Origin: Candidatus Woesearchaeota archaeon
Lineage (GTDB): Archaea; Nanobdellota; Nanobdellia; Pacearchaeales; GW2011-AR1
Reading direction: 5' to 3'
DNA: 64,000 nucleotides
Assembly: GCA_964545065.1 (NCBI GenBank)
Contig: CAZJEO010000002.1
Coordinates: 68,879 to 132,878, forward strand
Shown: one piece after another, positions 13,243 to 29,584 of the stretch
Layout of the letters: the number at the start of each line of letters is the position of its first letter
Position numbering within the stretch: the first letter of the stretch is position 1
Position numbers and translations under genes: made by a program
The notes under the pieces: generated by a model
Told to the model about the DNA's origin: nothing
What the model saw: only the letters and a program-made list of their open reading frames with translations
Database searches by the model: none

Positions 13243-13650
13243 ATGGAGTTAATAGATATCTTGAAGAGAAACCCAAATTTAACACTTAAAGATTTTCAGG
13301 AACTTCAAGGAACATATGATGGAAAATTTGTGGCTCAAAAATTTTCGGGTTTTGATAAAATAAGACATACTTATGCTCATATGGGTAAACTAATGGGGAG
13401 ATTGGCAGAATATATTCATGACATGGAAGAACAGGAAGAAGGAAATGTTTCTTCTGAGGACATAGAAATTAAAGTTATCCCTGATTTATTAGTTTATTCT
13501 GCTTGGCTTGCTGAAGAATTTAGCATAGATATCGAAGAAGCTGGCCTTAAAAGATTTGTAGGAAACTTGAGAAGACTTCATGCTGATAAAGTTCCTGTAG
13601 AAGAACTTGAAGAACTTGAGAGGTATGTGAAAGAAAGATTTGAGGTTTAG
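13243..13650 (+). CDS. Hypothetical protein (135 aa), possibly MazG-like all-alpha fold
   Basis: Intact ORF. The helical, acidic pattern is only weakly reminiscent of MazG-type proteins. Confidence 0.3.
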   Translation: MELIDILKRNPNLTLKDFQELQGTYDGKFVAQKFSGFDKIRHTYAHMGKLMGRLAEYIHDMEEQEEGNVSSEDIEIKVIPDLLVYSAWLAEEFSIDIEEAGLKRFVGNLRRLHADKVPVEELEELERYVKERFEV

Positions 13651-13865
13651 GGTTGCTTGAGAATAACTGAAATTATCTGAAGAACATAACCAAGGATAAT
13701 AAAAATCCAACCCAAATTTCTTAAAAGAGGATTTTCGTATTTTAGGGAAATTGCGGGCTTGCCACTCATAAAAATTCCACTCGCCTTTTGGGTTTGAAAA
13801 CCTTTAGCCAAGAAGAGCACTCCAAAGAAATTTAATATTAATCCGAATAATAAAATTGCCTCCAT
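13647..13865 (-). CDS. Small membrane protein (72 aa)
   Basis: Two hydrophobic segments. Convergent with the upstream gene. Confidence 0.35.
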   Translation of the reverse strand: MEAILLFGLILNFFGVLFLAKGFQTQKASGIFMSGKPAISLKYENPLLRNLGWIFIILGYVLQIISVILKQP

Positions 13866-14954: not shown

Positions 14955-15742
14955 AAACAAAAATATTAGATATAACAGGGAAAGAAAAAGCAAGCATTGA
15001 ACTTGCAGATTGTTTTAGTCAGGCTGTGAGAGAAGATATTGTTCATAAGGTGTTGGAGGCTAAGAAAACTCAACAGCCGTATTCTCCGTCACCTGTAGCA
15101 GGAAAGCAACACGCTGCAAAAGGAAAGATGGTTCATAGAAGACATGTTTGGAGAAGTGGTTATGGTCGTGGAGCAAGTAGGGTGCCAAGAAAGATTTTCT
15201 CAAGACGTGGAAGTCAATTTAATTGGGAAGCTGCAGAAGTTCCATTTGCAAGAGGTGGTATGAGAGCTCATCCTCCAAAAGTTTTAGGACATATTAATAC
15301 TTCAAAAATAAATAAGAGAGAATTAAAGGTTGCATTTATTTCTGCATTGAGTGCAACAGCAAATGACAAATATGTTGTGAAAAAATATCATACTATTGAA
15401 GATGTTAAGAATTTGCCAATTATTATTGAAGGAAAAATAATGTCTTTGAAAACAAAAGATATTCTTGTTTTATTGAAAAATATTCTTGGAGAAAATTTAT
15501 TTAATGTTGCTGTTAGAAAAAAATCTGTGCGAGCGGGAAAAGGAAAAGCTCGAGGAAGAAAATATAAGACAACTGCAGGAATGCTTTTGGTTGTTGGAGA
15601 AAAAGAAGAATTAAAGACAAATGTATTTGATGTTAAAAAAGTAAATAGCCTTGGTGTGACTGATTTGGCTCAAGGTGGTTTAGGAAGATTGGTTGTTTAT
15701 ACTGAAGAAGCAATTAAAGAAATTGGGGAGAAGTTGAAATGA
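14951..15742 (+). CDS. rpl4: 50S ribosomal protein L4 (uL4)
   Basis: Conserved position and uL4-like sequence. ATGA overlap with rpl3. Confidence 0.95.
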   Translation: MKTKILDITGKEKASIELADCFSQAVREDIVHKVLEAKKTQQPYSPSPVAGKQHAAKGKMVHRRHVWRSGYGRGASRVPRKIFSRRGSQFNWEAAEVPFARGGMRAHPPKVLGHINTSKINKRELKVAFISALSATANDKYVVKKYHTIEDVKNLPIIIEGKIMSLKTKDILVLLKNILGENLFNVAVRKKSVRAGKGKARGRKYKTTAGMLLVVGEKEELKTNVFDVKKVNSLGVTDLAQGGLGRLVVYTEEAIKEIGEKLK

Positions 15743-15792
15743 AAGTAAATAGGAAATTTTCATTCATCCGCCATAAGAGGTATGTCGAATGA
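15739..15792 (+). CDS. Leader uORF upstream of rpl23 (MKVNRKFSFIRHKRYVE)
   Basis: Its ATG overlaps the rpl4 stop (ATGA) and its stop overlaps the rpl23 ATG (ATGA). AATGAAA is duplicated at 15738 and 15788. Contains the GTAAAT..AAATTTTCA core and a GAGG 8 nt before rpl23. Confidence 0.45.
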   Translation: MKVNRKFSFIRHKRYVE

Positions 15793-16025
15793 AACCAATA
15801 GTAACTGAAAAAGCTGTTATGATGATTGAAAGAGAAAATGTTTTGACTTTTGAAATTGAAAGAAGAAAAACCAAGACTGAAATTCAAAAAGAAATTGCAG
15901 AGATGTTTGGTGTGAAAATTGAGAAGACACGAACTTTTATCAAGAATGGAAAAAAATATGCTTATGTTAAATTAAATGAAAAGTCGCCTGCGATTGATGT
16001 TGCGACAAAGTTGGGGTTAATTTAA
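15789..16025 (+). CDS. rpl23: 50S ribosomal protein L23 (uL23)
   Basis: 78 aa, conserved position, uL23-like sequence. Confidence 0.9.
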   Translation: MKPIVTEKAVMMIERENVLTFEIERRKTKTEIQKEIAEMFGVKIEKTRTFIKNGKKYAYVKLNEKSPAIDVATKLGLI

Positions 16026-16026
16026 A

Positions 16027-16728
16027 ATGGGGAAACGAATAATTCAACAGGCGCGTGGAAAGGGAAGTAAGACTTACAGAGTTCGAAGAAAGGCTTTTAG
16101 ATTTAAAATAAAATACCCTAGCAAGTTAGAAGGCGAAGGAACTGTTATCAAGTTGCTTAATTCTCCTGGGCATACTGCTCCTTTGGCAAAAGTGAAATAC
16201 AACGAAGGAATTTTCTACATGCCTGCGTTTAAGGGAATGATTGAAGAACAAAAAATAAGTTTTGACAATAAAGAAATAAAAGAAGGAAACATTTTAGAAC
16301 TTAGAAATATTCCAATAAAAACTCGGATTTATAATGTTGAATCGCGACCTAGAGATGGTGGGGTTTTCGTAAGAGGTGCGGGAAATGTTGCAGAAGTTAA
16401 GAGAATTTCAGAAGAAGGAATTTTTGTTGCATTGCCTTCGAAAAAAGAAAGGAAATTTAACCCAAGTTGTAGAGCAACTGTTGGAGTTATTGCTGGTTCA
16501 GGAAGATTAGAAAAGCCAATTGTTAAAGCTGGGAAAAAGCACCACATGAAAAAGGCTAAGAACAAGTTGTGGCCTAGAACATCTGCGGTTAAGATGAATG
16601 CTATTGATCATCCATTTGGTTCTGGTAGAGGAAAAGTTCCAAAAAGCAAAGTTGCTAAGAGGAATGCACCACCAGGAAGAAAGGTTGGATTGATAAGACC
16701 TGCAAGAACAGGTAGGAGAAAAAGATAA
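16027..16728 (+). CDS. rpl2: 50S ribosomal protein L2 (uL2)
   Basis: MGKRIIQQARGKGS start, GHTAPLAKV and the conserved C-terminal basic region. Confidence 0.95.
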   Translation: MGKRIIQQARGKGSKTYRVRRKAFRFKIKYPSKLEGEGTVIKLLNSPGHTAPLAKVKYNEGIFYMPAFKGMIEEQKISFDNKEIKEGNILELRNIPIKTRIYNVESRPRDGGVFVRGAGNVAEVKRISEEGIFVALPSKKERKFNPSCRATVGVIAGSGRLEKPIVKAGKKHHMKKAKNKLWPRTSAVKMNAIDHPFGSGRGKVPKSKVAKRNAPPGRKVGLIRPARTGRRKR

Positions 16729-16958
16729 TGGAATATGGAAAAATGTCTGATGATGAATTGATGAAAGTATACGAAAGTAGATTGGAAAAAGTAAATGAAA
16801 TTAGAAAAAATCAAGGTTTAGGCGATGAAGAACGATTATCAGTAACAAGGGCATCAAGGAACAACTTAATTATTGAAACATTATCTTTAGATTGCGTAAT
16901 CCTGCGTCACCGAGCAGCAGAATCAATTAAATCATCCGCAGAATCATTAAAATATTAA
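16728..16958 (+). CDS. Small lineage-specific ORF (76 aa) intercalated between rpl2 and rps19
   Basis: TAATG overlap with rpl2, 1-nt spacer to rps19. No homology recognised. Confidence 0.5.
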   Translation: MEYGKMSDDELMKVYESRLEKVNEIRKNQGLGDEERLSVTRASRNNLIIETLSLDCVILRHRAAESIKSSAESLKY

Positions 16959-16959
16959 A

Positions 16960-17361
16960 ATGGCAACAGAATTAAAGAAAAAAGAAGCATTGTATAAGGG
17001 AAAGACAATCGAAGAATTGAAGAATTTAGAGACTCGGGAGTTTGCTAATCTTGTTCCTTCTAGATCAAGAAGAACTATTCTTCGACAGTTTAGAGAGATT
17101 GAGGATTTTGTTAATCGGGCAAAGGAAAAATTAGGAAAGAAAAAATCGATAAGAACTCACCAGAGAAACCTTGTTGTTGTTCCGAAGATGGTTGGAATGA
17201 GGATTCAGGTTTACAACGGAAAAGAGTTTGTGGCTATGGAAGTTACAATGGAAATGCTCGGACATAAATTCGGTGAATTTGCACCGACACGAGGAAAAAT
17301 AAAGCACGGAAGTGCAGGAGTGGGAGCTACTAAAGGTTCTAGAGCCAACGCTAAGAAATAA
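16960..17361 (+). CDS. rps19: 30S ribosomal protein S19 (uS19)
   Basis: GHKFGEFAPTR motif and conserved position. Confidence 0.95.
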   Translation: MATELKKKEALYKGKTIEELKNLETREFANLVPSRSRRTILRQFREIEDFVNRAKEKLGKKKSIRTHQRNLVVVPKMVGMRIQVYNGKEFVAMEVTMEMLGHKFGEFAPTRGKIKHGSAGVGATKGSRANAKK

Positions 17362-17362
17362 A

Positions 17363-18070
17363 ATGACAGAAAAAGATTATAATCCAGAACAGAAAAATAA
17401 AAAAGTGATGAACACGCAAAAGGTAGTTGGAAAAGTAAATGAATCTCCTGTAAAAAAGGAAACTGCAAAAATTGCGCCAGAGGAAAAGAAAATAGCTTCG
17501 CCTGGAGACGAAGGAGATAAAGAAGTAATTAATAACAAAGACAGCGGCGCTATTAAGACACCCAAGGGTGTACACCAAGGAGGTGCGAGTACCTCTTCGA
17601 GGCCTCGAGAAACTTCTGGAGAAGTTTCTACTAGGGGCAAAAAACAACCTGTAACTTCTAAAGTAAAAAAGAGTGAAGCAATTGTTAATGGAGTTGGTTT
17701 GCCTCTTTCAACAAAAACATCTGTTGCTATTTGTAAATTTATTCGTGGAAAAAGCATTCCAAAAGCAATTGCAAATTTAGAGCAAGTTATTGCTAAGAAA
17801 AAAGCTGTTCCAATGAAAGGCGAAATTCCTCATAGAAAAGGAAAAATTATGTCGGGAAGATTCCCAAAAAATGCTGCAGAATATTTTATTAAATTATTAA
17901 AGAATTTGCAAGCAAATGCAAACGCTAATGGTTTGGACGAGCCAGTTGTTGCTGAAGCTATGGCAAATATTGCGTCTCAACCTTATGGAAGATTTGGAAG
18001 AGTTCGAAGAAAGAGAACTCATGTTTTACTTAAGGCTAAAGACAAGAAAATGAAGGGAGGAAACAAATAA
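17363..18070 (+). CDS. rpl22: 50S ribosomal protein L22 (uL22) with a ~95-aa N-terminal extension
   Basis: ATG 1 nt after the rps19 stop. The conserved uL22 core starts near GLPLSTKTSVAICKFIRGK. The extension contains the long repeat element. Confidence 0.85.
   Translation: MTEKDYNPEQKNKKVMNTQKVVGKVNESPVKKETAKIAPEEKKIASPGDEGDKEVINNKDSGAIKTPKGVHQGGASTSSRPRETSGEVSTRGKKQPVTSKVKKSEAIVNGVGLPLSTKTSVAICKFIRGKSIPKAIANLEQVIAKKKAVPMKGEIPHRKGKIMSGRFPKNAAEYFIKLLKNLQANANANGLDEPVVAEAMANIASQPYGRFGRVRRKRTHVLLKAKDKKMKGGNK
17558..17641 (+). repeat. In-frame palindromic mini-element, long form (rpl22 N-terminal extension; TPKGVHQGGASTSSRPRETSGEVSTRGK)
   Basis: ACACCCAAGGGTGTACACCAAGGAGGTGCGAGTACCTCTTCGAGGCCTCGAGAAACTTCTGGAGAAGTTTCTACTAGGGGCAAA. 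Inner stem AGAAACTTCT/AGAAGTTTCT. Confidence 0.9.
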
Positions 18071-18834
18071 TGGAAGAAAGAAATACAGTTAAATTTAGAA
18101 AAGATGAATTTGCTATCAAGGAATATATTAAAAAGCAACTTGGAAAAGGTAAGGTTAGCAAAGTTAGGATTGAATACACTCCTATTGGGGAGAAGATAAT
18201 TGTTTCAACAAGCAAGCCTGGTTTGGTTATTGGGAGAAAAGGAGAGAGAATTGAAGAGTTGACAATTATTTTGAAAAAGAAGTTCAAGCTTGAGAATCCG
18301 ATAGTTGAGATTGATGAGATTTTAAACCCAGAGTTTGATGCTCAGATTATTGCTGATGAGATTGCGCTTGGGTTAGAGAGGAGTGGGCCGTTGAAGTTTA
18401 AAGTTATTGCTTATCGGACATTGCAGAAAATAATGGGTGCAGGAGCTCTTGGAGCTGAGATAGTTATTGGGGGAAAATTGCCAGGAGCAAGGGCAAAATC
18501 CTGGAGGTTTGCTCAAGGATATTTAAAGAAAACAGGAGATAGTGCAAAGATTGTTGACAGAGCGAAATCAACTGCGCAAACAAAACCAGGAACTGTTGGA
18601 ATTAAAGTTAGTATACTTTCACCAGATGCTGTCTTTAAGGATAAAATAAAGATTGATGATGAAGTTATTGCAAAATTAAAGAATGCTGCAGAGGAAGTTG
18701 CGCCCAAGGGTGTACCCCGAGATATTTCTAAAGAAATATCTACCGAGGGCAAAGAGCAACAGAAAAAGAAAATAGTAAAAACTAAACTGGTATCTAAAGG
18801 TGTACCTTCTAAGGAAGGCAAGGCGGCGAAATAA
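18070..18834 (+). CDS. rps3: 30S ribosomal protein S3 (uS3)
   Basis: KH domain (LVIGRKGERIEEL) and conserved position. The C-terminal tail holds two repeat copies. Confidence 0.95.
   Translation: MEERNTVKFRKDEFAIKEYIKKQLGKGKVSKVRIEYTPIGEKIIVSTSKPGLVIGRKGERIEELTIILKKKFKLENPIVEIDEILNPEFDAQIIADEIALGLERSGPLKFKVIAYRTLQKIMGAGALGAEIVIGGKLPGARAKSWRFAQGYLKKTGDSAKIVDRAKSTAQTKPGTVGIKVSILSPDAVFKDKIKIDDEVIAKLKNAAEEVAPKGVPRDISKEISTEGKEQQKKKIVKTKLVSKGVPSKEGKAAK
18700..18754 (+). repeat. In-frame palindromic mini-element, medium form (rps3 tail; APKGVPRDISKEISTEGK)
   Basis: GCGCCCAAGGGTGTACCCCGAGATATTTCTAAAGAAATATCTACCGAGGGCAAAG. Inner stem GATATTTCT/AGAAATATC. Confidence 0.85.
18793..18823 (+). repeat. 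In-frame palindromic mini-element, short form, diverged (rps3 tail; SKGVPSKEGK)
   Basis: TCTAAAGGTGTACCTTCTAAGGAAGGCAAGG. The stem is CCTTC/GAAGG instead of CCCTC/GAGGG, a paired compensatory change. Confidence 0.65.
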
Positions 18835-18835
18835 A

Positions 18836-19048
18836 ATGGCAATACTTAAAACAAAAGAAATTAGAAACATGAGCGTTGGAGATAGAGAAAAGAAAATGAA
18901 AGAATTGAAAATGGAATTGGTTAAATCTCGATCTGGAAATTCAAAGACAGGTAACAAAACAAAAGAGATTAAAAGGATTATTGCAAAAATACTTACACTC
19001 AACAAAGCCGAGGAGAAATCACCTCAGGAGGTTGAGAAAAACAAATAA
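18836..19048 (+). CDS. rpl29: 50S ribosomal protein L29 (uL29)
   Basis: MAILKTKEIRNMS..ELKMEL is typical uL29. ATG 1 nt after the rps3 stop. Confidence 0.9.
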   Translation: MAILKTKEIRNMSVGDREKKMKELKMELVKSRSGNSKTGNKTKEIKRIIAKILTLNKAEEKSPQEVEKNK

Positions 19049-19049
19049 C

Positions 19050-19346
19050 ATGGAAATATGTCCGAAATGTGGTTTGCCTGAGCAAGCCTGCGTGTGTGAG
19101 CAGATTGTGAAAAGTTCACAAAGGATAAAGGTAACAACAGACCGTAAAAGATACGGTAAGATCGTCACTGTTGTTTCTGGATTTGGAGAGGGGATAGACG
19201 TGAAGAAGATCGCAAAAGCTCTGAAAAACGAGCTTGCTTGTGGGGGAACCTCCAAGGACAATGTGATCGAGCTTCAAGGCGACCACAGGAAGAAGATGAC
19301 AGGCCTGTTGGTTGAGTTAGGGTTTGAAGAAAACTCCATCGATTGA
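19050..19346 (+). CDS. Translation initiation factor SUI1 (aIF1)
   Basis: N-terminal CPKCGLPEQACVC zinc knuckle and the SUI1 core (GKIVTVVSGF..ELACGGT). G+C visibly higher than neighbouring genes. Confidence 0.85.
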   Translation: MEICPKCGLPEQACVCEQIVKSSQRIKVTTDRKRYGKIVTVVSGFGEGIDVKKIAKALKNELACGGTSKDNVIELQGDHRKKMTGLLVELGFEENSID

Positions 19347-19363
19347 ACACACAAAGAAACAAA

Positions 19364-19756
19364 ATGGAAAAAATAGAAGAAAAGAAACAGATAGAGAAAG
19401 AAACAGCTAAGACAGCTGGAGCTGGATGTGAAGATAAGAATTGTCATGTTCATGGTAGCTTGAAAGTTCGTGGAAAAATCTTTGAAGGAGAAGTTATCAA
19501 GAAATTCCCTAAGAGAGTTGTTATTCAATTTGAAAGAATGATTTATGTTAGAAAATATGAAAGATACAAAAAAAGTAAGACAAAGATTCACGCAAGACTT
19601 CAAGATTGTATGAAGGATGATGTTCAAGTTGGAGATATGATTAGGATTCAAGAATGTCGACCTTTGAGTAAGATTATACATTTTATAGTGCTAGGGAAAA
19701 TCACACCCAAAGGTGTACCCTCTAAAGAGGGCAAAGCCAAGGAGGAAAAGAAATGA
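19364..19756 (+). CDS. rps17: 30S ribosomal protein S17 (uS17)
   Basis: CEDKNCHVHG and RIQECRPLSK motifs. First ATG in the ORF. The tail carries the short repeat. Confidence 0.9.
   Translation: MEKIEEKKQIEKETAKTAGAGCEDKNCHVHGSLKVRGKIFEGEVIKKFPKRVVIQFERMIYVRKYERYKKSKTKIHARLQDCMKDDVQVGDMIRIQECRPLSKIIHFIVLGKITPKGVPSKEGKAKEEKK
19703..19736 (+). repeat. In-frame palindromic mini-element, short form (rps17 tail; TPKGVPSKEGK)
   Basis: ACACCCAAAGGTGTACCCTCTAAAGAGGGCAAAG, near-identical to the rpl3 copy. Confidence 0.85.
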
Positions 19757-20154
19757 AAGCAATAAGTGCAAAGATAACACCAGGAGTGAGTATAGGCTCA
19801 ACATTAATTGCAGCCAGTAATAGTGGAGCAAAGATTGTGCGGTTGGTTGGAGTAAAGAGAGCTAAGGCCAAGAAGGGTCACCATGTTTCAGCGAAAGTGG
19901 CTGACTTGGTTAAAGTTTCTGTAAGAAAAGGTGTGCCAGATATGAAAGGTCATGTGTTTGACGCAATTGTTGTAAGACAGAGAAAATCATACAGAAGACT
20001 TAATGGAGAAAGAATTGCATTTGAAGATAATGCTGTTGCGATTTTGAAAGATGATAAAGGAAATCCCAAGGGAACTCAGATTAAAGGACCTGTTGCAAGG
20101 GAGGTGCAAGAGCGATGGCCGCAAGTTGCGAAGATTGCTAGTGTGGTAGTTTAA
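19753..20154 (+). CDS. rpl14: 50S ribosomal protein L14 (uL14)
   Basis: Typical uL14 sequence. ATGA overlap with rps17. Confidence 0.95.
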   Translation: MKAISAKITPGVSIGSTLIAASNSGAKIVRLVGVKRAKAKKGHHVSAKVADLVKVSVRKGVPDMKGHVFDAIVVRQRKSYRRLNGERIAFEDNAVAILKDDKGNPKGTQIKGPVAREVQERWPQVAKIASVVV

Positions 20155-20155
20155 G

Positions 20156-20401
20156 ATGAAAGATAGAAAGACAGTATTATTAGAAAGGGCAGCAGGAATT
20201 GATTTTCTTGCAAGCGTAATCGGTGCTTTTGTGGGGGGAGAATATTTAGAAAGAGCAAAAAACCTGTATGAAAAAATAACAATAAAATATGAGGAAGAAA
20301 TAGGGGAAAAATGGCCAATTCAGTGGAGATTAAATGAAATAAGAAAACTGGAAGCAGAAGAATTTCCTTACCCAATAGAAACACATTCAACACTTTTATA
20401 A
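20156..20401 (+). CDS. Small lineage-specific ORF (81 aa) intercalated between rpl14 and rpl24
   Basis: 1-nt spacers on both sides. No homology recognised. Confidence 0.5.
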   Translation: MKDRKTVLLERAAGIDFLASVIGAFVGGEYLERAKNLYEKITIKYEEEIGEKWPIQWRLNEIRKLEAEEFPYPIETHSTLL

Positions 20402-20402
20402 A

Positions 20403-20918
20403 ATGAAACAAAAATTTAGTAAAGCATGGAAAGCAAGTTCACAGCCTCGGAAGCAGAGGAAATATGCAGCGAATGCTCCGATACATTTGAAGCGAAAACT
20501 TTTGAGTGTTAATCTTGCGAAAGATTTGAGAACAAGACATAAAAAGAAAAATATTCCTGTGCGAAAAGGAGATACTATTTTAGTTATGCGTGGGAAATTC
20601 AAAGGGAAAAAAGGAAAAGTAAATGAAGTTAAAACAAAAATGGAGAAAATTTATGTTGAAGGTATTCAAGTGAAAAAGCGAGATGGTACAACAGTTAATG
20701 TTCCGTTGAAGGCATCGAATTTGCAGATTATTGAATTGTATATGGAAGATGGGAAAAGAATTAAAAGGATGCAGGAAGAAAAGAAAGAGAGCAAGGGAAA
20801 AAAGAATGCTGAATCTAAAGATTCAGAAGATAAAAAAGATAATAAGAAAGACAGCGGGGTGGTGGATAAAGTGAAAAAGCAAGATAATAAAAAGGAAAAT
20901 GCGGAGGTAAAGAAATAA
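20403..20918 (+). CDS. rpl24: 50S ribosomal protein L24 (uL24) with a K/E-rich C-terminal extension
   Basis: KOW motif VRKGDTILVMRGKFKGKKGKV and conserved position. Confidence 0.9.
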   Translation: MKQKFSKAWKASSQPRKQRKYAANAPIHLKRKLLSVNLAKDLRTRHKKKNIPVRKGDTILVMRGKFKGKKGKVNEVKTKMEKIYVEGIQVKKRDGTTVNVPLKASNLQIIELYMEDGKRIKRMQEEKKESKGKKNAESKDSEDKKDNKKDSGVVDKVKKQDNKKENAEVKK

Positions 20919-21145
20919 TGAAAACAGAAACAAGAAATTTAATTAGAAATTGTAGAAAACTAAAAAAAGTGCATAAAATAGCTAAAAAATGTGTTTCTTT
21001 AAATGATTTGCAATTTTCTTTAAAGATTTTCGAAACAAACTTGGATCGACTTGGAAAAAGAGTACCCGAAGATCCCAGAGCAGGTCGTGCATTTAGGAAA
21101 TATCAAGCATTTTATAATAGAAAATGTGCGGAGGTTTATCGATAA
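20918..21145 (+). CDS. Small lineage-specific ORF (75 aa) intercalated between rpl24 and rps4e
   Basis: TAATG overlaps at both ends. Basic helical protein, no homology recognised. Confidence 0.5.
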   Translation: MKTETRNLIRNCRKLKKVHKIAKKCVSLNDLQFSLKIFETNLDRLGKRVPEDPRAGRAFRKYQAFYNRKCAEVYR

Positions 21146-21789
21146 TGGCATACTTAAAACGACAAAAAGTTCCGAAGAATTGGCCTATTCATAGAAAAGG
21201 CACAACTTATGTAGTTAGGCCTGGTTTTAGTATTGGGAAGGGAATTCCTATTTTGATTATTTTGCGGGATATTTTGAAAGTTGCAGCAAATCGAAGAGAA
21301 GCTAAAAGAATAATTCACGCGAAACAAGTTTTATTGAATAATAAACCTGTAATGGATGACAAGCACAATGTTTTGTTACTTGATTGTATAAGTATTGTTC
21401 CATCAAATAAATTCTATAGAATGAATTTATCAGATAAAGGAAAATTCAAACTTGAAGAAGTTAAAGCTGAGGAAGCAGGAAGAAAAGTTTCTAAGATAGT
21501 AAATAAGAAAACTTTGAAAGGAAAAAAGACTCAATTGAATTTGAGTGATGGGAGAAATTTCTTGTCTGATTTGAAATGTAATGTTAATGATTCTGTTTTG
21601 ATTAATCTTTTAGAAAAGAAATTAGAAAAATGTATCCCATTACAAGAAAAAGCAAAGGTTCTTGTTTTTGAAGGAAAACACGCTGGTGAAAAAGGTGTAA
21701 TCGATAAGCTTAAAGACAAAACAGCAGAGATAAAGATGGAAGATAGAACAGTTGATATTTTAATTAAACAGTTGATGGTGGTTGAATAA
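21145..21789 (+). CDS. rps4e: 30S ribosomal protein S4e (eS4)
   Basis: MAYLKRQKVPKNWPIHRKGTTYVVRP is the typical eS4 N-terminus. Confidence 0.9.
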   Translation: MAYLKRQKVPKNWPIHRKGTTYVVRPGFSIGKGIPILIILRDILKVAANRREAKRIIHAKQVLLNNKPVMDDKHNVLLLDCISIVPSNKFYRMNLSDKGKFKLEEVKAEEAGRKVSKIVNKKTLKGKKTQLNLSDGRNFLSDLKCNVNDSVLINLLEKKLEKCIPLQEKAKVLVFEGKHAGEKGVIDKLKDKTAEIKMEDRTVDILIKQLMVVE

Positions 21790-22102
21790 AATGGATGAAA
21801 CAAAAATAAGAAGGCAATTGGGAGTAGAACAACAACTTGTTGATATGGCAAAGTCAGCAGCTGAAGCTAGTTGTTATCAAGAAACTGCAGAATTATTAGA
21901 TAAGGCGAAAAGGTGTAAGGATGTAGTTTATGGATTGTTGATGGAGGCTGAACCAGATGAAAACGGGCTTGCTAGGATGACATGTGAAGTTCCCTCAAAC
22001 ATGGAAAGGACAAGAAACCATCCTTTTGCTAAGGATACTCAAAGAATCTATTCAGAAGGAGAAAAATATTGTATGCATAAACTTCAAAGGATATGTAATT
22101 AA
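21782..22102 (+). CDS. Small lineage-specific ORF (106 aa, several Cys) intercalated between rps4e and rpl5
   Basis: 8-nt overlap with rps4e, 1-nt spacer to the rpl5 ORF. No homology recognised. Confidence 0.5.
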   Translation: MNKMDETKIRRQLGVEQQLVDMAKSAAEASCYQETAELLDKAKRCKDVVYGLLMEAEPDENGLARMTCEVPSNMERTRNHPFAKDTQRIYSEGEKYCMHKLQRICN

Positions 22103-22103
22103 A

Positions 22104-22769
22104 ATGACAGATAAAGAAGAAGAAACTAAAATGGCAGAAGAAACAGCACCCAAGGGTGTACACCAAGGAGGCGCGAGTACCTCTTCGCCAAGTAGGTCTG
22201 AAAGAAGGCCCCTAGACATTTCTCAAGAAATGTCTACTGAGGGCAAAGAAAAACAAATGGCATCCAAGGAGAATCCAATGCGAGAAATAAAAATCGAGAA
22301 GATTGTTCTTAGCATAGGTGGGATTGGAGAAGACTTGGAAAAGGGTGTTAAGCTTTTGAAACTTATTACTGGAAGAGTTCCTGCTAAAAAAAGATCAAAC
22401 AAAAGAATTCCAACTTTGAATGTTCGACCGAAACTTGAAATTGGAGCAATGGTTACAATCAGGCAAAACATAAAAGAGTTTTTGGAAAAAATGCTTGTTG
22501 CTATTGATAATACTTTGAAGAGAAAACAAATAAGTGAAAATAATTTTTCATTTGGAATCCATGAATATATTGAGATTCCAGGAGTAGAATATCAGAGAGA
22601 ACTTGGAATCATGGGATTTGATGTTACTGTTGTTTTCAAAAGAGCAGGACGAAGAGTTAAGTTGAGAAAAGTGAAGCGAGGAAAAGTTTCAAAGCGACAA
22701 GTTATAAGCAAAGAAGAAATAATTAAATTCATGGAAGAAAATTTTAATACGGAGTTTGTGGGGAAATGA
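22104..22769 (+). CDS. rpl5: 50S ribosomal protein L5 (uL5); alternative start at 22257
   Basis: The conserved uL5 core begins at MASKENPMREIKIEKIVLSIG (ATG 22257). The in-frame upstream 51 codons from ATG 22104 consist mostly of the long repeat element. Confidence 0.85.
   Translation: MTDKEEETKMAEETAPKGVHQGGASTSSPSRSERRPLDISQEMSTEGKEKQMASKENPMREIKIEKIVLSIGGIGEDLEKGVKLLKLITGRVPAKKRSNKRIPTLNVRPKLEIGAMVTIRQNIKEFLEKMLVAIDNTLKRKQISENNFSFGIHEYIEIPGVEYQRELGIMGFDVTVVFKRAGRRVKLRKVKRGKVSKRQVISKEEIIKFMEENFNTEFVGK
22146..22248 (+). repeat. In-frame palindromic mini-element, long form with an extra 18-nt module (5' of the rpl5 core)
   Basis: GCACCCAAGGGTGTACACCAAGGAGGCGCGAGTACCTCTTCG[CCAAGTAGGTCTGAAAGA]AGGCCCCTAGACATTTCTCAAGAAATGTCTACTGAGGGCAAAG. 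Inner stem TAGACATTTCT/AGAAATGTCTA. Confidence 0.9.
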
Positions 22770-23467
22770 TGATGAAGATTGCAGAAAAAATATTTGAGAA
22801 ATATCCTGAATTTGAAGTGGGGGTTATTATAGCGAGAGATTTGGATAATTCAAAATATAATGAAGAAATCCAAGGATTAATAAGGGGAATTGAAAAAGAA
22901 ACTAGGGAAAAAATAGATCCAGAAGAAGTTACTCAGAATCCAACTATTGCTAAGTGGAGAGAAATATATAAATCATTTGGAGCAAAGCCAAGCGATTATA
23001 GAAATTCTGTTGAAGCATTAATTAAAAGGGTCCTTAAAACAGAATTATATAAAATAAATCCTCTTGTGGATTTGTATAATTATATTTCTATAAAATATAT
23101 AATGACTGCTGGCGGAGAAGATATTGACAAAATAGAAGGTGACTTAATATTAGATTTTGCTAATGGAGATGAAGAGTTTATTCCGCTTGGAGAAGAAGAG
23201 AACAAATCTCCTTGGGAAGGAGAAGTTGTGTATAAAGATGATAAGGGCGCTATTTGTAGATGTTGGAATTGGAGAGAGGGCGATAGAACAAAACTTACAG
23301 AAGACACTAAAAATGCTGTGTTAGTTATTGAGAACATAATTCCAGAAGATAATGAAAAGTTAAAAGAAGCTTTAGAAGAACTTAAATCATTAATTGAAAA
23401 ATATTGTGGAGCAAAATGTGAAACTCATATTTTAAATAAAGAAAATTCAGAGGTGGATTTAAAATGA
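22766..23467 (+). CDS. Free-standing B3/B4 (PheRS-beta editing-like, tRNA-binding) domain protein
   Basis: NPLVDLYNYISIKYIMTAGGEDIDKIEG resembles the B3_4 domain signature. ATGA overlaps with rpl5 and rps14. Confidence 0.55.
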   Translation: MMMKIAEKIFEKYPEFEVGVIIARDLDNSKYNEEIQGLIRGIEKETREKIDPEEVTQNPTIAKWREIYKSFGAKPSDYRNSVEALIKRVLKTELYKINPLVDLYNYISIKYIMTAGGEDIDKIEGDLILDFANGDEEFIPLGEEENKSPWEGEVVYKDDKGAICRCWNWREGDRTKLTEDTKNAVLVIENIIPEDNEKLKEALEELKSLIEKYCGAKCETHILNKENSEVDLK

Positions 23468-23694
23468 CTGCAAGTGATTGGAAAAAGGTTTTGAAACAGA
23501 TACGGAACAAACCAGCGAAAGCTGCACGGTTTTTGAAACACAACAAGCCGAAAGAAAGGAAGATTGGAATCGCTGTGAATAAATGCGAGAGGTGTGGAAG
23601 ATTTGGCGCTCACATAAAATCATACGGATTAAATTTATGCCGACACTGTTTTCGAGAAATCGCGACAGAAATAGGTTTTCAAAAATATAGTTAA
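23464..23694 (+). CDS. rps14: 30S ribosomal protein S14 (uS14, zinc form)
   Basis: CERCGR...CRHCFRE zinc-ribbon motif and conserved position. Confidence 0.9.
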   Translation: MTASDWKKVLKQIRNKPAKAARFLKHNKPKERKIGIAVNKCERCGRFGAHIKSYGLNLCRHCFREIATEIGFQKYS

Positions 23695-23695
23695 A

Positions 23696-24076
23696 ATGAG
23701 TCAAGATATAGTCGCTGATGCGTTGAACATGTTACGAAATGCAAAGAAAGCTAGAAAGGATGTTGTTGAAATTAAGAAAATTTCAGATTTATTAATCGAG
23801 ATTTTAAAAATAATGAAACAGAAAGGCGCGATAAAGAAATACAAGATTGATGCTAAGAATAGAAGCATTGAAGTTACAATTGGAGACTTGTCAGAATGTA
23901 AAGCGATTAAGCCAAGGTTTACTGTTAAGAAAGAAGATGTTGAAAAGTACGTGAGACGATATTTGCCTGCGAGAAATTTGGGAACAATGGTTGTTTCTAC
24001 TAACAAAGGTTTGATGACTCACACAGAAGCTCAAGAAGAAAAAACGGGGGGATGCTTGATTGCATTTTTTTATTAA
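23696..24076 (+). CDS. rps8: 30S ribosomal protein S8 (uS8)
   Basis: DIVADALNMLRNA start, GGCLIAFFY end and conserved position. Confidence 0.95.
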   Translation: MSQDIVADALNMLRNAKKARKDVVEIKKISDLLIEILKIMKQKGAIKKYKIDAKNRSIEVTIGDLSECKAIKPRFTVKKEDVEKYVRRYLPARNLGTMVVSTNKGLMTHTEAQEEKTGGCLIAFFY

Positions 24077-24077
24077 A

Positions 24078-24152
24078 ATGAAAAAAGTAAATCAACCAAG
24101 TAGGTCTGAAGGAAGATTTTCATGTTTTCCTTTTTGGAGGAACCGAAAATGA
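24078..24152 (+). CDS. Leader uORF upstream of rpl6 (MKKVNQPSRSEGRFSCFPFWRNRK)
   Basis: ATG 1 nt after the rps8 stop. AAAATGAAAAAAG is duplicated at 24075-24087 and 24146-24158. Its stop overlaps the rpl6 ATG (ATGA), and GGAGG lies 8 nt before rpl6. Contains the GTAAATCAA..AGATTTTCA core plus the 18-nt module. Confidence 0.45.
   Translation: MKKVNQPSRSEGRFSCFPFWRNRK
24096..24115 (+). repeat. 18-nt module CCAAGTAGGTCTGAAGGA(AG), second copy (inside the rpl6 leader uORF)
   Basis: Matches 22188-22208 (CCAAGTAGGTCTGAAAGAAGG) with one mismatch. It is absent from the otherwise homologous leaders at 3101 and 15745. Confidence 0.7.
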
Positions 24153-24691
24153 AAAAAGAAATATTTCAAACAATAGAAATTCCTGAGGGAGTTGAAGCGA
24201 ATTTAGAAAAAGATATTCTTACTGTGAAGGGACCTGAAGGAGAGAATAAGAGAGAATTTGATATTACGAATCTTTCACTTGAGAAAAAAGATAATCAAAT
24301 AATTGTTGGGAATGCTAAGGCGACAAAAAAAGAAAAGAAAAGAATTGGAACTCTTGCTGCACATATTAAGAATATGATTAAAGGTGTTCAGGAAAAGTTT
24401 GAATACAAGTTGAAAATTTGTTTTAGCCATTTCCCTATGACTGCTGAGATGCAAGGAAAGGAAGTTATAATCAAGAATTTCTTAGGAGAAAAAATTCCTA
24501 GAAAGGTTGCGATTCGAGATGGCGCTGAAGTTAAGATAGAGAAAGATATTATTACTGTTACTTCTGTGGATAAAGAAATCGCTGGACAAGTTGCGGCTAA
24601 TTTTGAAACAGCTACAAAGGTTCCTTTGAAAGATAGAAGAGTTTTCCAAGATGGAATTTATATTACAAATAAAGCAGGGAGGGAAATGTAA
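24149..24691 (+). CDS. rpl6: 50S ribosomal protein L6 (uL6)
   Basis: MKKEIFQTIEIPEGV is the typical uL6 start. SD-like GGAGG upstream. The longer track ORF from 24122 is less likely. Confidence 0.9.
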   Translation: MKKEIFQTIEIPEGVEANLEKDILTVKGPEGENKREFDITNLSLEKKDNQIIVGNAKATKKEKKRIGTLAAHIKNMIKGVQEKFEYKLKICFSHFPMTAEMQGKEVIIKNFLGEKIPRKVAIRDGAEVKIEKDIITVTSVDKEIAGQVAANFETATKVPLKDRRVFQDGIYITNKAGREM

Positions 24692-25227
24692 TGGCTCCAA
24701 CATTTTTAAGACGAACAAGTTTTAGGTATTCAAAACTTGGAAAGGGTAGAAAGAAAAAACAAGTTTGGAGAAGACCGACTGGAAGAGATAATAAAATGCG
24801 GGAAAGAAGGAAAGGATATCCTGCTGTGGTTAGTGTTGGATACAAGACAAATAAAAAAGAACACAAAAATATTGTGAATGTTGAAAATTTAAAGGATTTG
24901 GCAAAAGTACAAAAAGGAGATGTTGTTGTTTTTGGAAATATTGGAAAAAAGAAAAAAATAGAACTTGCAAAAAAGGCAAAAGAAATGAAAATTGAAATCA
25001 GTAATTTAAATATTGAAAAGTTTTTAAAAAAGATTAAAGAGAAGGAAGAGAAGAAAGTTGAAGTTGAGACAAAAGGAAAAAAGATAGTTAAGAAAACTGG
25101 AGTGAAGAAGAAAGAAGAAACTAAATCAGATGGAGTCGCACCCAAGGGTGTACACCAAGAAGGTGCGAGTACCTCTTCGAGGCCCCGAAACATTTCCAAG
25201 GAAATGTCTACTGGGGGCAAAAAATGA
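24691..25227 (+). CDS. rpl32e: 50S ribosomal protein L32e (eL32) with a C-terminal extension
   Basis: FLRRTSFRYSKLG..WRRPTGRDNKMR is the eL32 core. The tail ends with the long repeat element. Confidence 0.9.
   Translation: MAPTFLRRTSFRYSKLGKGRKKKQVWRRPTGRDNKMRERRKGYPAVVSVGYKTNKKEHKNIVNVENLKDLAKVQKGDVVVFGNIGKKKKIELAKKAKEMKIEISNLNIEKFLKKIKEKEEKKVEVETKGKKIVKKTGVKKKEETKSDGVAPKGVHQEGASTSSRPRNISKEMSTGGKK
25138..25221 (+). repeat. In-frame palindromic mini-element, long form (rpl32e C-terminus, abutting the rpl19e start)
   Basis: GCACCCAAGGGTGTACACCAAGAAGGTGCGAGTACCTCTTCGAGGCCCCGAAACATTTCCAAGGAAATGTCTACTGGGGGCAAA. Inner stem ACATTTCC/GGAAATGT. Confidence 0.9.
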
Positions 25228-25631
25228 ATTTAGCAAAAAAGAAAAACTTAGCAGCAAGAACATTAGGAGTTGGAAGAAAGAGAATTGTTTTCTTAGCTCC
25301 GCGAATGGATGAAATCAAAGAAGCCATTACTAAACAAGATATTCGAGATTTGAAAGAAGAAGGAGCAATAATTATCAAAGATGTTAAAGGGAAGAAAAAA
25401 GTTGAGAAGAGAAACAGACGAAGAAGTACTGGGAAGATTCGAAAGAAAGTTAATATTCGAAAAAAGCAATATGTTATTATGACTAAAAAATTGAGAACTT
25501 ATGTTGTTGGTTTGGTTGAAGCAGGAAAAATAACTAAAGAAGATTCTGTGGATATGAGAAAGAAAATAAAGAATAAATTTTTCAGAAGTAAAGCTCACAT
25601 GAAAGAATATGTTGGAGGATTGGAGAAATGA
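25224..25631 (+). CDS. rpl19e: 50S ribosomal protein L19e (eL19)
   Basis: MNLAKKKNLAARTLGVGRKRI is the typical eL19 start. Confidence 0.95.
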   Translation: MNLAKKKNLAARTLGVGRKRIVFLAPRMDEIKEAITKQDIRDLKEEGAIIIKDVKGKKKVEKRNRRRSTGKIRKKVNIRKKQYVIMTKKLRTYVVGLVEAGKITKEDSVDMRKKIKNKFFRSKAHMKEYVGGLEK

Positions 25632-26137
25632 CAGTAAAAAAAATGCCGAAACGAAGAAGACGAGAAAATAAAACAGATTATGGTAAGAGACTTAAGTTGC
25701 TGAAGGCAGGAGTTCCGAGAATTGTTTTTAGAAAAAGTAACAAATATATTATTGCACAATATGTGACAAGCAAAGAAGCTCAAGACAAGATTGAATTCGG
25801 AGTGATTTCAAAAGATTTGGTGAACTTTGGTTGGCCAAAAGAAAACCAAGGAAGTTTGAAATCAATTCCTGCTGCGTATTTGATTGGATTGTTAATGGGT
25901 AAAAAAATTACAGAGAAAGGATTAGAAAACCCAATAATTGATTTTGGGATGAACAGAATGTTATATAAAACTAAAACTTATGCTTTCTTGAAGGGAGTTG
26001 TTGACGCTGGAATTCAAATTAATGCCAAAGATGAAATTTTCCCAGAACAAGATAGAATTCAAGGAAAACATATGAAAAAAGATTTTTCAAGTATGTTCGA
26101 ACAAATTAAATCAAATATTGATAAAAATGGAAAGTAA
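25628..26137 (+). CDS. rpl18: 50S ribosomal protein L18 (uL18)
   Basis: RRRRENKTDYGKRLKLL motif and conserved position. Confidence 0.95.
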   Translation: MTVKKMPKRRRRENKTDYGKRLKLLKAGVPRIVFRKSNKYIIAQYVTSKEAQDKIEFGVISKDLVNFGWPKENQGSLKSIPAAYLIGLLMGKKITEKGLENPIIDFGMNRMLYKTKTYAFLKGVVDAGIQINAKDEIFPEQDRIQGKHMKKDFSSMFEQIKSNIDKNGK

Positions 26138-27005
26138 AATTACAGAAAAAGCTAAACAAATAGATGCTGGAAATAGAAGAGCCTTTGGTGGTTCTCCAGA
26201 AGATAGAAAGAAAAGATTTCAGCAAAGAATTGAAGAAGAAGAAAGAGAAAGATTAGCTAGTTGGAAACCAAAAACAAAACTTGGAAGAGAAGTAAGAGAA
26301 GGGAAGATAAAAAATATTGATGAAATTCTTGATTCAGGAAGAAAAATTATGGAATCTGAAATTGTTGATTTGGTTGCAAATGTTAAATCTGATTTAATTT
26401 TCGTTGGACAATCAAAAGGAAAGTTCGGTGGTGGAAAGAGAAGAGTTTGGAGACAAACGCAGAGAAAAACTCGTGAAGGAAATGTTCCTACTTTTTCAAC
26501 AATGGCTGTTATAGGAGATGGGAATGGGCATATTGGAATTGGCGATGGGAAGTCTAAGGAAACTTTGCCTGCAAGAGATAAAGCAACAAAGAAAGCTAAG
26601 TTGAATATTTTTAGAATTACAAGAGCTTGTGCTGGTTTTGATTGTGCTTGTTCTGAATTACATTCTGTTCCATTCAAAGTTACTGGAAAATCTGGAAGTG
26701 TTAGAGTTACATTAATCCCTGCACCACAAGGAACTGGATTGGTTGTGGCAAATGAATTAAAGAAAATTTTGAAACTTGCTGGAATCAAAGATGTTTATAG
26801 TAGAACTTCGGGTAAACAGCGAACATCTTTTAACTTGATTAAGGCTTGTATTGAAGCTTTAAAGAAAACAAATGGTGATAAGCAAGTTGTTGCAAAACAA
26901 GTGATTAAAAAAGTTGAAAAGAAAGAAGAAGTTGTAGAAAAGAAACCTGTGAAAACTGACGAAAAGAAAACAGAATCAAAAGAAGTTAAGGAGGTTGGGA
27001 AATGA
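26127..27005 (+). CDS. rps5: 30S ribosomal protein S5 (uS5) with a K/E-rich C-terminal extension
   Basis: uS5 core (GDGNGHIGIGDGKSKE) and first ATG in the ORF. Confidence 0.9.
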   Translation: MESKITEKAKQIDAGNRRAFGGSPEDRKKRFQQRIEEEERERLASWKPKTKLGREVREGKIKNIDEILDSGRKIMESEIVDLVANVKSDLIFVGQSKGKFGGGKRRVWRQTQRKTREGNVPTFSTMAVIGDGNGHIGIGDGKSKETLPARDKATKKAKLNIFRITRACAGFDCACSELHSVPFKVTGKSGSVRVTLIPAPQGTGLVVANELKKILKLAGIKDVYSRTSGKQRTSFNLIKACIEALKKTNGDKQVVAKQVIKKVEKKEEVVEKKPVKTDEKKTESKEVKEVGK

Positions 27006-27229
27006 ATTTAGTTGAAACTGCAGTTGTAGCTTTGGAAAAGGTTGTTAATGTGTATTGTGATGATAAGTCCCGAAAAGGGATGGATGAAGTTAGAGATTAC
27101 TATGCTACTTATGAGAAAGTTCTTTCAAGTGAAGGAGAGGGTTTGCCAGAAGAAACTATTCTGGAACTTGAAGGGCGAGCTAAAACTGCTTATAAAACAT
27201 TTTGGGAGAATAAAACACCATGCTGGTAG
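27002..27229 (+). CDS. Small lineage-specific ORF (75 aa) intercalated between rps5 and rpl30
   Basis: ATGA overlap with rps5 and a 10-nt overlap with rpl30. No homology recognised. Confidence 0.5.
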   Translation: MNLVETAVVALEKVVNVYCDDKSRKGMDEVRDYYATYEKVLSSEGEGLPEETILELEGRAKTAYKTFWENKTPCW

Positions 27230-27567
27230 TAATTAGAATACGAGGACAAGTTGGATTGGATGAACACATAGTAAATACTTTGTACAGATTAAGACTTAGA
27301 AAAAAATACACTTGTATTGTTTTGGAAAATCCTGGTAAGGAACAACTTGGAATGATAGAGAAGGTAAAGAATTTTGTGGCTTATGGTGAAATAGATGAAG
27401 CTACTTACAAAAAACTTGTTGAAGCACGAGCAGGGAAAATAAAGAATTTCTTTAGATTGCATCCTCCGAGAAAAGGAATTGATAGTAAGAAACATTTTGG
27501 AGTTGCTAAAGGTGTTTTAGGAAATCATGGTAAGGAAATAAATAAATTAGTGGAGAGAATGTTATGA
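27220..27567 (+). CDS. rpl30: 50S ribosomal protein L30 (uL30)
   Basis: MLVVIRIRGQVG start and conserved position. Confidence 0.9.
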   Translation: MLVVIRIRGQVGLDEHIVNTLYRLRLRKKYTCIVLENPGKEQLGMIEKVKNFVAYGEIDEATYKKLVEARAGKIKNFFRLHPPRKGIDSKKHFGVAKGVLGNHGKEINKLVERML

Positions 27568-28118
27568 TAACTAAAAAACGAACAAAAGCATCTCGACAAC
27601 ATGGAAGAAACATGGGAACACACGGAGGCGGAGCTAGGAAAAAGCGAAAAGGTTCAGGGCATAGAGGAGGAAAAGGAATGTCTGGAAGTGGAAAGCGAGC
27701 AGACCAGAAGAAAACTCTTGTGATAAAACTTTATGGTCATGAGTATTTCGGTAAGCAGGGAATCACAAGCAGGGGAACAAAAAGAGATACAAGACAAAGA
27801 ATTAATCTTCAACAAATTGAAAATAATTTAGAGAAATATGGACACCAAGGGCGTACCCCGAAAGATTTTGATAAAAAATCTTTACAAGGGGCAAAGCAAG
27901 GAAAAGATGGTTGGGAAATTGAATTAGGAAAATATAAAATTCTTGGAAATGGCGAAGTTAAGAATAAATTAATTATTACAGCTATGGAAGCTTCTGCATC
28001 TGCGGTTGAGAAAGTGAAGAAAGCTGGCGGGGAGATAATTGTTAATGCTCACCGCTCGGTGTACCCCAAATTGCAGAATAAAGGGGCAAAAAAAGAGGAA
28101 AACATTGAAGAAAAATGA
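27564..28118 (+). CDS. rpl15: 50S ribosomal protein L15 (uL15)
   Basis: G/R/K-rich N-terminus (GGGARKKRKGSGHRGGKG) and conserved position. Holds two repeat copies. Confidence 0.9.
   Translation: MITKKRTKASRQHGRNMGTHGGGARKKRKGSGHRGGKGMSGSGKRADQKKTLVIKLYGHEYFGKQGITSRGTKRDTRQRINLQQIENNLEKYGHQGRTPKDFDKKSLQGAKQGKDGWEIELGKYKILGNGEVKNKLIITAMEASASAVEKVKKAGGEIIVNAHRSVYPKLQNKGAKKEENIEEK
27842..27896 (+). repeat. Palindromic mini-element, medium form, read in a different frame (inside rpl15; HQGRTPKDFDKKSLQGAK)
   Basis: ACACCAAGGGCGTACCCCGAAAGATTTTGATAAAAAATCTTTACAAGGGGCAAAG. Inner stem AAAGATTTT/AAAATCTTT; outer stem CCCC/GGGG. Confidence 0.75.
28050..28090 (+). repeat. Palindromic mini-element, short/diverged form, third reading frame at the 5' arm (rpl15 C-terminal region)
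   Basis: CACCGCTCGGTGTACCCCAAATTGCAGAATAAAGGGGCAAA retains the GGTGTACCCC and GGGGCAAA arms. Confidence 0.55.
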
Positions 28119-29554: not shown

Positions 29555-29584
29555 TTTTAAAAACCAAGTTTTGTTGATTTTAAA

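Follow-up and report, generated by a model that had tools for sequence, protein, structure and literature searches.

The ribosomal superoperon that runs from L3 to SecY is a textbook case of frozen gene order and a common anchor for phylogeny and for binning. What, then, are small unrecognized genes doing inside it? The question is raised by a 64,000-nucleotide (nt) stretch of DNA from a Candidatus Woesearchaeota archaeon (contig CAZJEO010000002.1, positions 68,879 to 132,878 of the forward strand; hereafter, the window), in which an earlier note had picked out five small open reading frames (ORFs), here called o1 to o5, lodged between ribosomal protein genes. Two explanations had been offered, lineage-specific ribosome-associated proteins or selfish ORF insertions; the second, taken as selfish or accessory insertion, fits what we found, and the first mostly does not. 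We propose, with a probability of roughly 75%, that the five ORFs and a sixth gene, encoding a B3/4-domain protein, are dispensable, fast-turnover passenger genes at superoperon junctions and not parts of the ribosome. A role as ribosome parts is disfavoured because the ORFs are absent from close genomes, unrelated ORFs replace them there, four of the five are acidic, and enzymes occupy similar slots in relatives.

Results

Five ORFs fill junctions of the L3-to-SecY superoperon

The host is a DPANN archaeon of a Pacearchaeota-like family. The window (G+C ~33%) is part of a 198-kb contig of a metagenome-assembled genome (MAG) of 782 kb in 27 contigs that is 85% complete. Its superoperon spans 13986-29554 on the + strand in the order uL3-uL4-uL23-uL2-(o1)-uS19-uL22-uS3-uL29-SUI1-uS17-uL14-(o2)-uL24-(o3)-eS4-(o4)-uL5-(B3/4)-uS14-uS8-uL6-eL32-eL19-uL18-uS5-(o5)-uL30-uL15-SecY, with an EMC3/DUF106-like gene after SecY.

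The + strand does contain all five ORFs at the junctions described earlier; each lies on the operon strand, fills its gap and touches both neighbours. The orphan o1 (16728..16958, +; 76 amino acids [aa], acidic, isoelectric point [pI] 5.8) lies between uL2 and uS19; its ATG shares an A with the uL2 stop (TAATG), and its TAA is followed, after one base, by the uS19 ATG at 16960. Between uL14 and uL24 lies o2 (20156..20401, +; 81 aa, acidic, pI 5.2), also an orphan, with a 1-nt gap on each side (uL14 stop at 20154, uL24 ATG at 20403). The strongly basic o3 (20918..21145, +; 75 aa, pI 10.4, net charge +14) is joined by TAATG overlaps at both ends, to the uL24 stop and to the eS4 ATG at 21145. Between eS4 and uL5, o4 (21791..22102, +; 103 aa, pI 5.7, five cysteines) starts with an ATG one base past the eS4 stop and ends in a TAA at 22102, one base before the uL5 ATG at 22104. 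The third orphan, o5 (27002..27229, +; 75 aa, acidic, pI 4.7), overlaps the uS5 stop through an ATGA and runs 10 nt into uL30, whose ATG is at 27220. With respect to charge, o3 is as basic as uS14, whereas the other four are acidic (pI 4.7-5.8). Only the start of o4 had to be moved: the earlier note had begun it at 21782, a TTG that overlaps eS4, but the start is most likely the ATG at 21791, because the public gene call uses that ATG and an ortholog aligns from there.

The borders had been described as TAATG, ATGA or 1-nt gaps, and so we read them, apart from the 10 nt shared by o5 and uL30. The accompanying proposal, that the ORFs are likely co-translated with the ribosomal proteins, fits this anatomy of one strand, filled gaps, and stop/start overlaps or 1-nt spacings. 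Each insert has a junction signal (TAATG, ATGA or TAA-N-ATG) at both ends; an empty junction has the signal once. Some inserts also supply, in their last codons, a Shine-Dalgarno-like motif to the ribosomal gene that follows. At all five sites there are relatives in which the junction is empty (TAATG, ATGA or a 1-2-nt gap); at uS5|uL30, every relative assessed has a plain ATGA, except one with a 1-nt gap.

The five ORFs resemble genuine genes

When the bases of each insert were shuffled, the frame stayed open in at most 0.17% of trials for each of the five. Codon usage was scored as log-odds after training on 341 long ORFs of the genome; the five ORFs scored 0.14-0.43 bits per codon (o1 0.24, o2 0.34), and a comparison set of 520 spurious open ORFs (60-130 aa, nested in long genes) averaged -0.26 +/- 0.26. 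The scores of the five were reached by 0-3.5% of the spurious ORFs, and the top score, 0.43 for o5, exceeded all 520. There is strong evidence that o3 and o4 are protein-coding genes and good evidence that o1, o2 and o5 are real genes as well.

The ORFs could in principle be artefacts, produced by a chimeric assembly of the metagenome or arising by chance in non-coding spacers or in RNA elements. In favour of this, the window contig, which belongs to a MAG, is the sole record of o1, o2, o3 and o5. Against an artefact, intact junction signals flank the inserts base-for-base, the frames are open at P<0.002 each, the G+C content, third-position G+C (GC3) and purine excess of the inserts match the genome, and no Rfam family was found in 13-31 kb of the window. 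Moreover, an ortholog of o4 occurs in the same context in two independent assemblies, and the same architecture recurs in about 100 independent assemblies. We therefore give an artefact almost no weight.

The ORFs turn over between sister genomes

We compared the window with the same cluster from 20 species representatives, to which 80 loci found through SecY were later added. A tree built from a concatenation of 13 ribosomal proteins joined the window first with its sister genome, L027 (support 100/99), then with G001, a genome of the same genus, and then with the other three genus members. The sister is close: its uL14 is 98.5% and its uS14 100% identical to that of the window. It is nevertheless without o1, o2, o3, o5 and the B3/4 gene, and has ten occupied junctions of its own. 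Among the ~100 loci compared, the only counterpart of any of the five ORFs or the B3/4 gene was o4 in L027. Absence from close relatives had been raised earlier as a reason to doubt these ORFs; four of the five are indeed absent from both L027 and G001, and o4 is kept in L027 and missing from G001 and beyond. The conserved presence in close relatives that marks a ribosomal protein was not found.

The same junctions are filled with different genes. At uL2|uS19, L027 has an unrelated 79-aa ORF (z=1.2 versus o1), and in G001 the junction is empty. The uL14|uL24 junction is occupied in all six genus genomes, by ORFs of 81 to 162 aa; when those of the window, L027 and G001 were compared directly, they scored like shuffled sequences, and all-against-all BLAST found no link among the uL14|uL24 ORFs of the window and four genus genomes. 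Fast-diverged orthology at the shared junctions was considered for o1 versus the L027 ORF and for o2 versus the L027 and G001 ORFs and rejected, with z at most 1.2 compared with z=72 for o4 at the same divergence; at the nucleotide level, o1 matched its L027 counterpart in position only weakly, out of register and out of frame, and this was taken as chance. Loss is indicated as well. L027 and G001 share an ORF at uS14|uS8 that is not in the window, where the junction is clean, and this clean junction therefore points to precise loss.

Along the cluster (13986-30376), synonymous divergence (dS) between the window and L027 ranges from 0.25 to 2.2. It is 0.25-0.45 in uL23, uL14, uS14, uS5, uL4 and uL6, and 1.0-2.2 in uS3, SUI1, uL24, eS4, uS8, eL19, uL18 and the EMC3-like gene. 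Such unevenness could reflect a recombination mosaic, with which it is compatible, though it does not amount to proof.

Occupied junctions characterize the family

We scored a junction as occupied if it held at least 150 nt of extra DNA. Within the family, 55 of 299 junctions were occupied, versus 2 of 107 in six genomes that belong to the order but to other families, in keeping with the earlier statement that these junctions are normally uninterrupted; since the genomes are kin to each other, this contrast is descriptive and carries no statistical test. Across the ~100 loci there were 209 occupied gaps, in 201 of which the longest ORF lay on the operon strand. Of 186 gaps, 164 had 85% or more of their length covered by one ORF. 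The commonest spacings from ORF stop to next start were -4 (64 cases) and +1 (56 cases). The slots most used were uL30|uL15, uL14|uL24, uS17|uL14, uS8|uL6 and uL15|SecY.

Clustering of 234 same-strand ORFs gave 166 clusters, 130 of them singletons, and several families occurred at more than one junction. Passengers that could be named in relatives were an RNase_T-type exonuclease, a nucleoside 2-deoxyribosyltransferase, MazG, a metallo-beta-lactamase fold and DUF5680; none of the nameable passengers, including the B3/4 domain of the window, is ribosomal. A TPR-like helical-hairpin superfamily shared by the passengers was suspected by eye, and no search supported it. The passengers belong to a vast collection of small genes, most of them unrelated, and their gain, loss, replacement and occasional movement from one junction to another outpace the divergence of species in this Pacearchaeota-like family.

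Homology searches identify orphans and two small families

At 90% identity, each of the five ORFs is a singleton among ~15 billion proteins and was seen on one contig. The earlier observation that the ORFs resemble neither each other nor known families held throughout: Pfam gave no match at E<0.01 for any of the five, PHROGs and PADLOC gave none, and NCBIfam gave only a sub-threshold, unrelated match for o3. None of the five belongs to a ribosomal protein family by profile (Pfam, NCBIfam). Comparison of all against all revealed no similarity among the five, the host genome contains no paralogues of them at the protein or DNA level, and ~230 passengers of relatives showed no similarity to any of them except o4.

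For o1, no homolog was found in a word-indexed search of 5.8 billion clusters, in viral contigs, in 1.6 Mb of related loci or in its own genome; for o5, none was found in the 5.8 billion clusters, viral contigs or related loci. A search of 150 genomes of the family with o2 returned a best E-value of 0.004, inside unrelated larger ORFs, and no homolog came from a pattern scan of metagenome contigs or from searches of viral contigs, the ESM Atlas and the related loci. A viral origin of the inserts is unsupported, because a search of the IMG/VR viral contigs for o1, o2, o5 and the o3 and o4 families found no relatives.

Relatives exist for o3 and o4. The ortholog of o4 (P0007), 74% identical and also 103 aa long, lies between eS4 and uL5 in L027 and L028, which are independent assemblies. 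Compared with its ortholog in L027, o4 has a nonsynonymous divergence (dN) of 0.157, a dS of 0.82 and a dN/dS of 0.19, within the range of 0.00-0.25 for the neighbouring ribosomal protein genes (uL24 0.245, uL15 0.24, eL32 0.19). Thus, o4 is under purifying selection. The tree places its gain on the stem of the window and L027. When 7,713 ORFs from 113 related loci were searched iteratively, a distant member of the o4 family turned up at another junction, uL14|uL24 of G012, a genome of another genus.

An exhaustive HMMER search of 1.8 billion representatives, run for o3 only, identified two homologs, with 45% and 39% identity. Both come from metagenome contigs, are exactly 75 aa long and lie between uL24 and eS4 with overlapping borders, and the family alignment has 21 invariant columns. 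The uL24 beside one of the homologs is 67% identical to that of the window, approximately a between-genera distance in this family. The conserved C-terminal AEVY of o3 is encoded by GCGGAGGT, which stands ~10 nt before the eS4 ATG at both loci; the passenger therefore carries what looks like the Shine-Dalgarno motif of the next gene. Pattern scans of genome and metagenome contigs gave no further members, and o3 was not found in the 20 relatives or in L027. Thus, o3 is one of a small family fixed to the uL24|eS4 junction. Of the checks that had been suggested, then, purifying selection is seen in o4, the o3 family keeps its exact length and position at 39-45% identity, and synteny holds for o4 in L027 and for the o3 homologs, each at its own junction, but for none of o1, o2 and o5; profile searches matched no family, and structure prediction yielded helical bundles for o3 and o4.

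Structure predictions and the case for a ribosomal role

The AlphaFold2 model of o3, built from three sequences, is a three-helix bundle (helices 3-22, 28-48 and 53-73) with a mean predicted local distance difference test score (pLDDT) of 85.3. The best model of o4 is a helical bundle with a pLDDT of 86.8; its other four models score 52-61, which makes it less secure. Amphipathic helical periodicity is significant for o3 (p 0.02) and o4 (p 0.0035) only (o1, o2 and o5: p 0.62, 0.58 and 0.11). Foldseek matched the o3 and o4 models to generic helical bundles only, with E at least 0.36, and VIA-align gave them Z scores of 9.9-11, below the ~13 that the tool gives for unrelated helical bundles. The fold matches listed were designed proteins, BAG, MIT, syntaxin Habc and PTS IIA, and we draw no function from them.

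Could one or more of the ORFs, chiefly o3 and possibly o4, nonetheless be lineage-specific proteins of the ribosome or of translation (extra ribosomal proteins, assembly factors or regulators), whose place in the operon reflects co-regulated function? The pI and net charge that o3 shares with uS14, the exact length and junction that it keeps in three lineages, and selection on o4 as strong as that on uL24, uL15 and eL32 would all suit such a role; coupling would yield near-stoichiometric synthesis, and the match lists include a weak, non-significant fold resemblance to bS20-type three-helix proteins. However, neither the sister nor any of the other four genus members has o3, nor do the rest of the 20 relatives, and o4 is missing from G001 and beyond and has its relative at another junction. 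No ORF matched a ribosomal protein family, the predicted folds are generic helical bundles, and four of the five products are acidic. We judge a ribosomal role unlikely for these ORFs, and o3 alone is a weak candidate for an RNA- or ribosome-binding protein.

A different possibility is that the inserts are functionless filler in which only the openness of the frame is selected, keeping ribosomes moving and the downstream genes coupled and free of polarity. Such filler would look much like o1, o2 and o5, which found no relatives in our searches and have no significant helical periodicity, and it would agree with the extreme turnover and with junction signals that are clearly kept by selection. 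It would not explain why o4 has a dN/dS of 0.19 instead of ~1, why the o3 family conserves residues and length, why all five use codons as real genes typically do, or why recognizable enzymes sit in similar slots of relatives. A strongly reduced genome would also be expected to delete filler, and precise loss evidently occurs (uS14|uS8). This explanation seems to us even less probable than a ribosomal one.

A possible mechanism of gain and loss

If the five ORFs and the B3/4 gene are passengers, each would be transcribed from the operon promoter and translated by coupling, and the downstream essential gene would be left undisturbed. Their products would be dispensable accessory proteins, not stoichiometric parts of the ribosome. 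Insertion may duplicate the start region of the downstream gene, or use microhomology there. In L027, the first 14 nt of the o4 ortholog are also those of uL5, and in G014 (locus L006) uS19 has 11 nt in common with the passenger at uL2|uS19; for 145 junctions, the prefix common to both starts averages 4.27 nt, compared with 3.91 nt in permuted pairs (p<0.0005). The short direct repeats from a duplicated junction could in turn permit exact excision, and the conserved ribosomal genes on either side could let passengers move between lineages by homologous recombination. A junction would be a favourable site in that it offers strong expression to a gene without its own promoter, and an imprecise deletion of the passenger would also hit essential neighbours.

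One may go further and speculate that, in this family, the stop/start junctions of core operons form a recombinase-free platform for cassette exchange, on which single genes enter, leave or change junctions via microhomology at the duplicated signal or recombination in the conserved flanks and hundreds of orphan proteins gain expression at ribosomal levels. We regard this extension as doubtful and offer it only tentatively. If it were true, the passengers could include host-interaction or anti-defence factors, an idea suggested by the MazG, metallo-beta-lactamase-fold and deoxyribosyltransferase passengers of relatives.

Comparison with known systems

The closest published concept that we checked is, by analogy, the insertion of ORFans into native operons (Price, Arkin & Alm 2006, 'The Life-Cycle of Operons', PMC1480536). 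These authors described ORFans inserted beside native genes and probably expressed from native promoters, a single ORFan inside sdhCDAB-b0725-sucABCD, and operon genes replaced by non-homologous ones, and called the mechanism unclear (PMC1480536). The likeness lies in a gene without homologs outside close relatives inside a native operon. In the window, the flanking genes are adjacent in relatives at all five sites, homologs are confined to a narrow group (one ortholog and one distant relative for o4, two homologs for o3, none found for o1, o2 and o5), and co-orientation is accompanied by coupling signals. The differences are that here the operon is the most conserved known, that occupancy rises to 6-10 of 20 junctions per genome, and that turnover is visible between sisters, with internal insertions and exactly preserved coupling; E. 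coli ORFans are preferentially downstream of a native gene.

Looser analogies may be drawn with morons and integron cassettes. Phage morons are additional genes lodged between two genes that stand side by side in related phages, and classical morons have their own promoter and terminator. Like them, the inserts are single-gene units, patchy and diverse, with mostly unassigned functions, between conserved co-directional neighbours. Unlike morons, they lie in an essential cellular operon with borders that leave no room for signals of their own, and searches of viral collections and PHROGs found no relatives. Integron cassettes are likewise promoterless single-gene units in one orientation behind an upstream promoter, with high turnover and mostly unassigned functions, but our inserts are dispersed over many junctions and form no single array. 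Nor do they share an attC-type site; what they have in common is just the stop/start signal and short chance matches.

Non-ribosomal residents of the archaeal S10-spc region (aIF1/SUI1, RNase P Rpp29, SecY and DUF106/EMC3-like genes), of which SUI1, SecY and the EMC3-like gene are also present in the window, are similarly co-oriented and tightly packed. They are, however, ancient and fixed in position across archaea, whereas the five ORFs are orphans or near-orphans in one or two genomes. In the literature, we found no description of passenger genes in DPANN ribosomal operons.

The B3/4-domain gene and other insertions

The sixth passenger, the B3/4-domain protein gene (22766..23467, +; 233 aa; Pfam B3_4, E 4e-33), occupies the uL5|uS14 junction, where it overlaps each neighbour through an ATGA. 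It clusters with no other protein at 90% identity, and the ribosomal protein clusters of the relatives examined all lack it. The protein is free-standing, and it is the sole passenger in the window with a recognizable (tRNA-related) domain.

The superoperon also contains a second, different kind of insertion, a repeat with the core CCCAAGGGTGTAC. Seven copies occur on the + strand (14355, 17561, 18703, 18793, 19706, 22149 and 25141; chance expectation 0.83), inside uL3, uL22, uS3 (two), uS17, uL5 and eL32, where they encode in-frame PKGV... peptides. A link of o1-o5 to this in-frame hairpin repeat of the genome, which is like the Rickettsia palindromic element, was ruled out, as none of the five contains the CCCAAGGGTGTAC core.

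Beyond the cluster, 13.5 kb of flank is syntenic with a G001 contig, and four or five ORFs there have no counterpart in that contig: 8530-9756 (-), 13243-13650 (+), 13647-13865 (-) and 30399-30650 (-). The turnover of small genes is therefore not confined to the operon, and the operon is probably not the exclusive target of insertion. Elsewhere in the genome, the uS13-uS4-uS11-RpoD run is uninterrupted, and it is followed by a 113-aa ORF with no Pfam match (L117 4908-5249 (-), G000:C2 ~167900-168250), in the place usual for L18e-uL13-uS9, and then by SecF and a NUDIX gene. Two overlapping ORFs of 230 and 182 aa with PD40 beta-propeller repeats, perhaps one frameshifted gene, lie between SecE and Spt5/NusG-uL11, normally a tight cluster (L119 7302-8385 (-), G000:C2 ~63300-64385). 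There, L37ae and prefoldin come after uL11 in place of uL1-uL10-P1.

Some junctions without a passenger in the window are filled in relatives. At uL4|uL23, the window has a 46-nt spacer without a gene; a ~200-aa RNase_T/DEDD-type exonuclease gene is a conserved resident of this junction in at least six relatives (L003 7362-7961 (-); L005, L009-L012). The SUI1|uS17 junction is the usual place of RNase P Rpp29. No gene lies there in the window (19346-19364) or its family, and the order-level relatives L018 and L020 have an ORF of 92-93 aa. At uL15|SecY, L027 (14368-15178) has a 72-aa cysteine-rich ORF and a 196-aa metallo-beta-lactamase-fold gene, the latter with a weak precomputed match to the Anti-Pycsar protein Apyc1.

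Discussion

Several points weigh against our proposal that the five ORFs and the B3/4 gene are dispensable passengers. For o1, o2 and o5, which are without relatives, coding status is argued from frame openness and codon usage, and strand composition could partly mimic gene-like codon usage. The basicity of o3 and its one fixed junction, kept across a divergence that leaves uL24 67% identical, would also fit a lineage-specific ribosome-binding protein. Co-transcription and translational coupling are deduced from gene anatomy, and gain and loss via recombination is a mechanism that we infer; the signal for duplicated starts is small, with few long cases. Finally, the operon may be no special target, just the place where turnover is most visible.

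If the passengers are what we propose, even the frozen L3-SecY operon takes in new genes, provided that translational coupling is kept. For annotation this is a warning: position among ribosomal genes is no ground for a ribosomal name. The pool of passengers would be a defined list of proteins without assigned function, highly expressed as judged from their place in the operon, in host-dependent organisms. The superoperon of this family would thus offer a natural system in which the birth, acquisition and expression of orphan genes may be followed in extremely reduced genomes.

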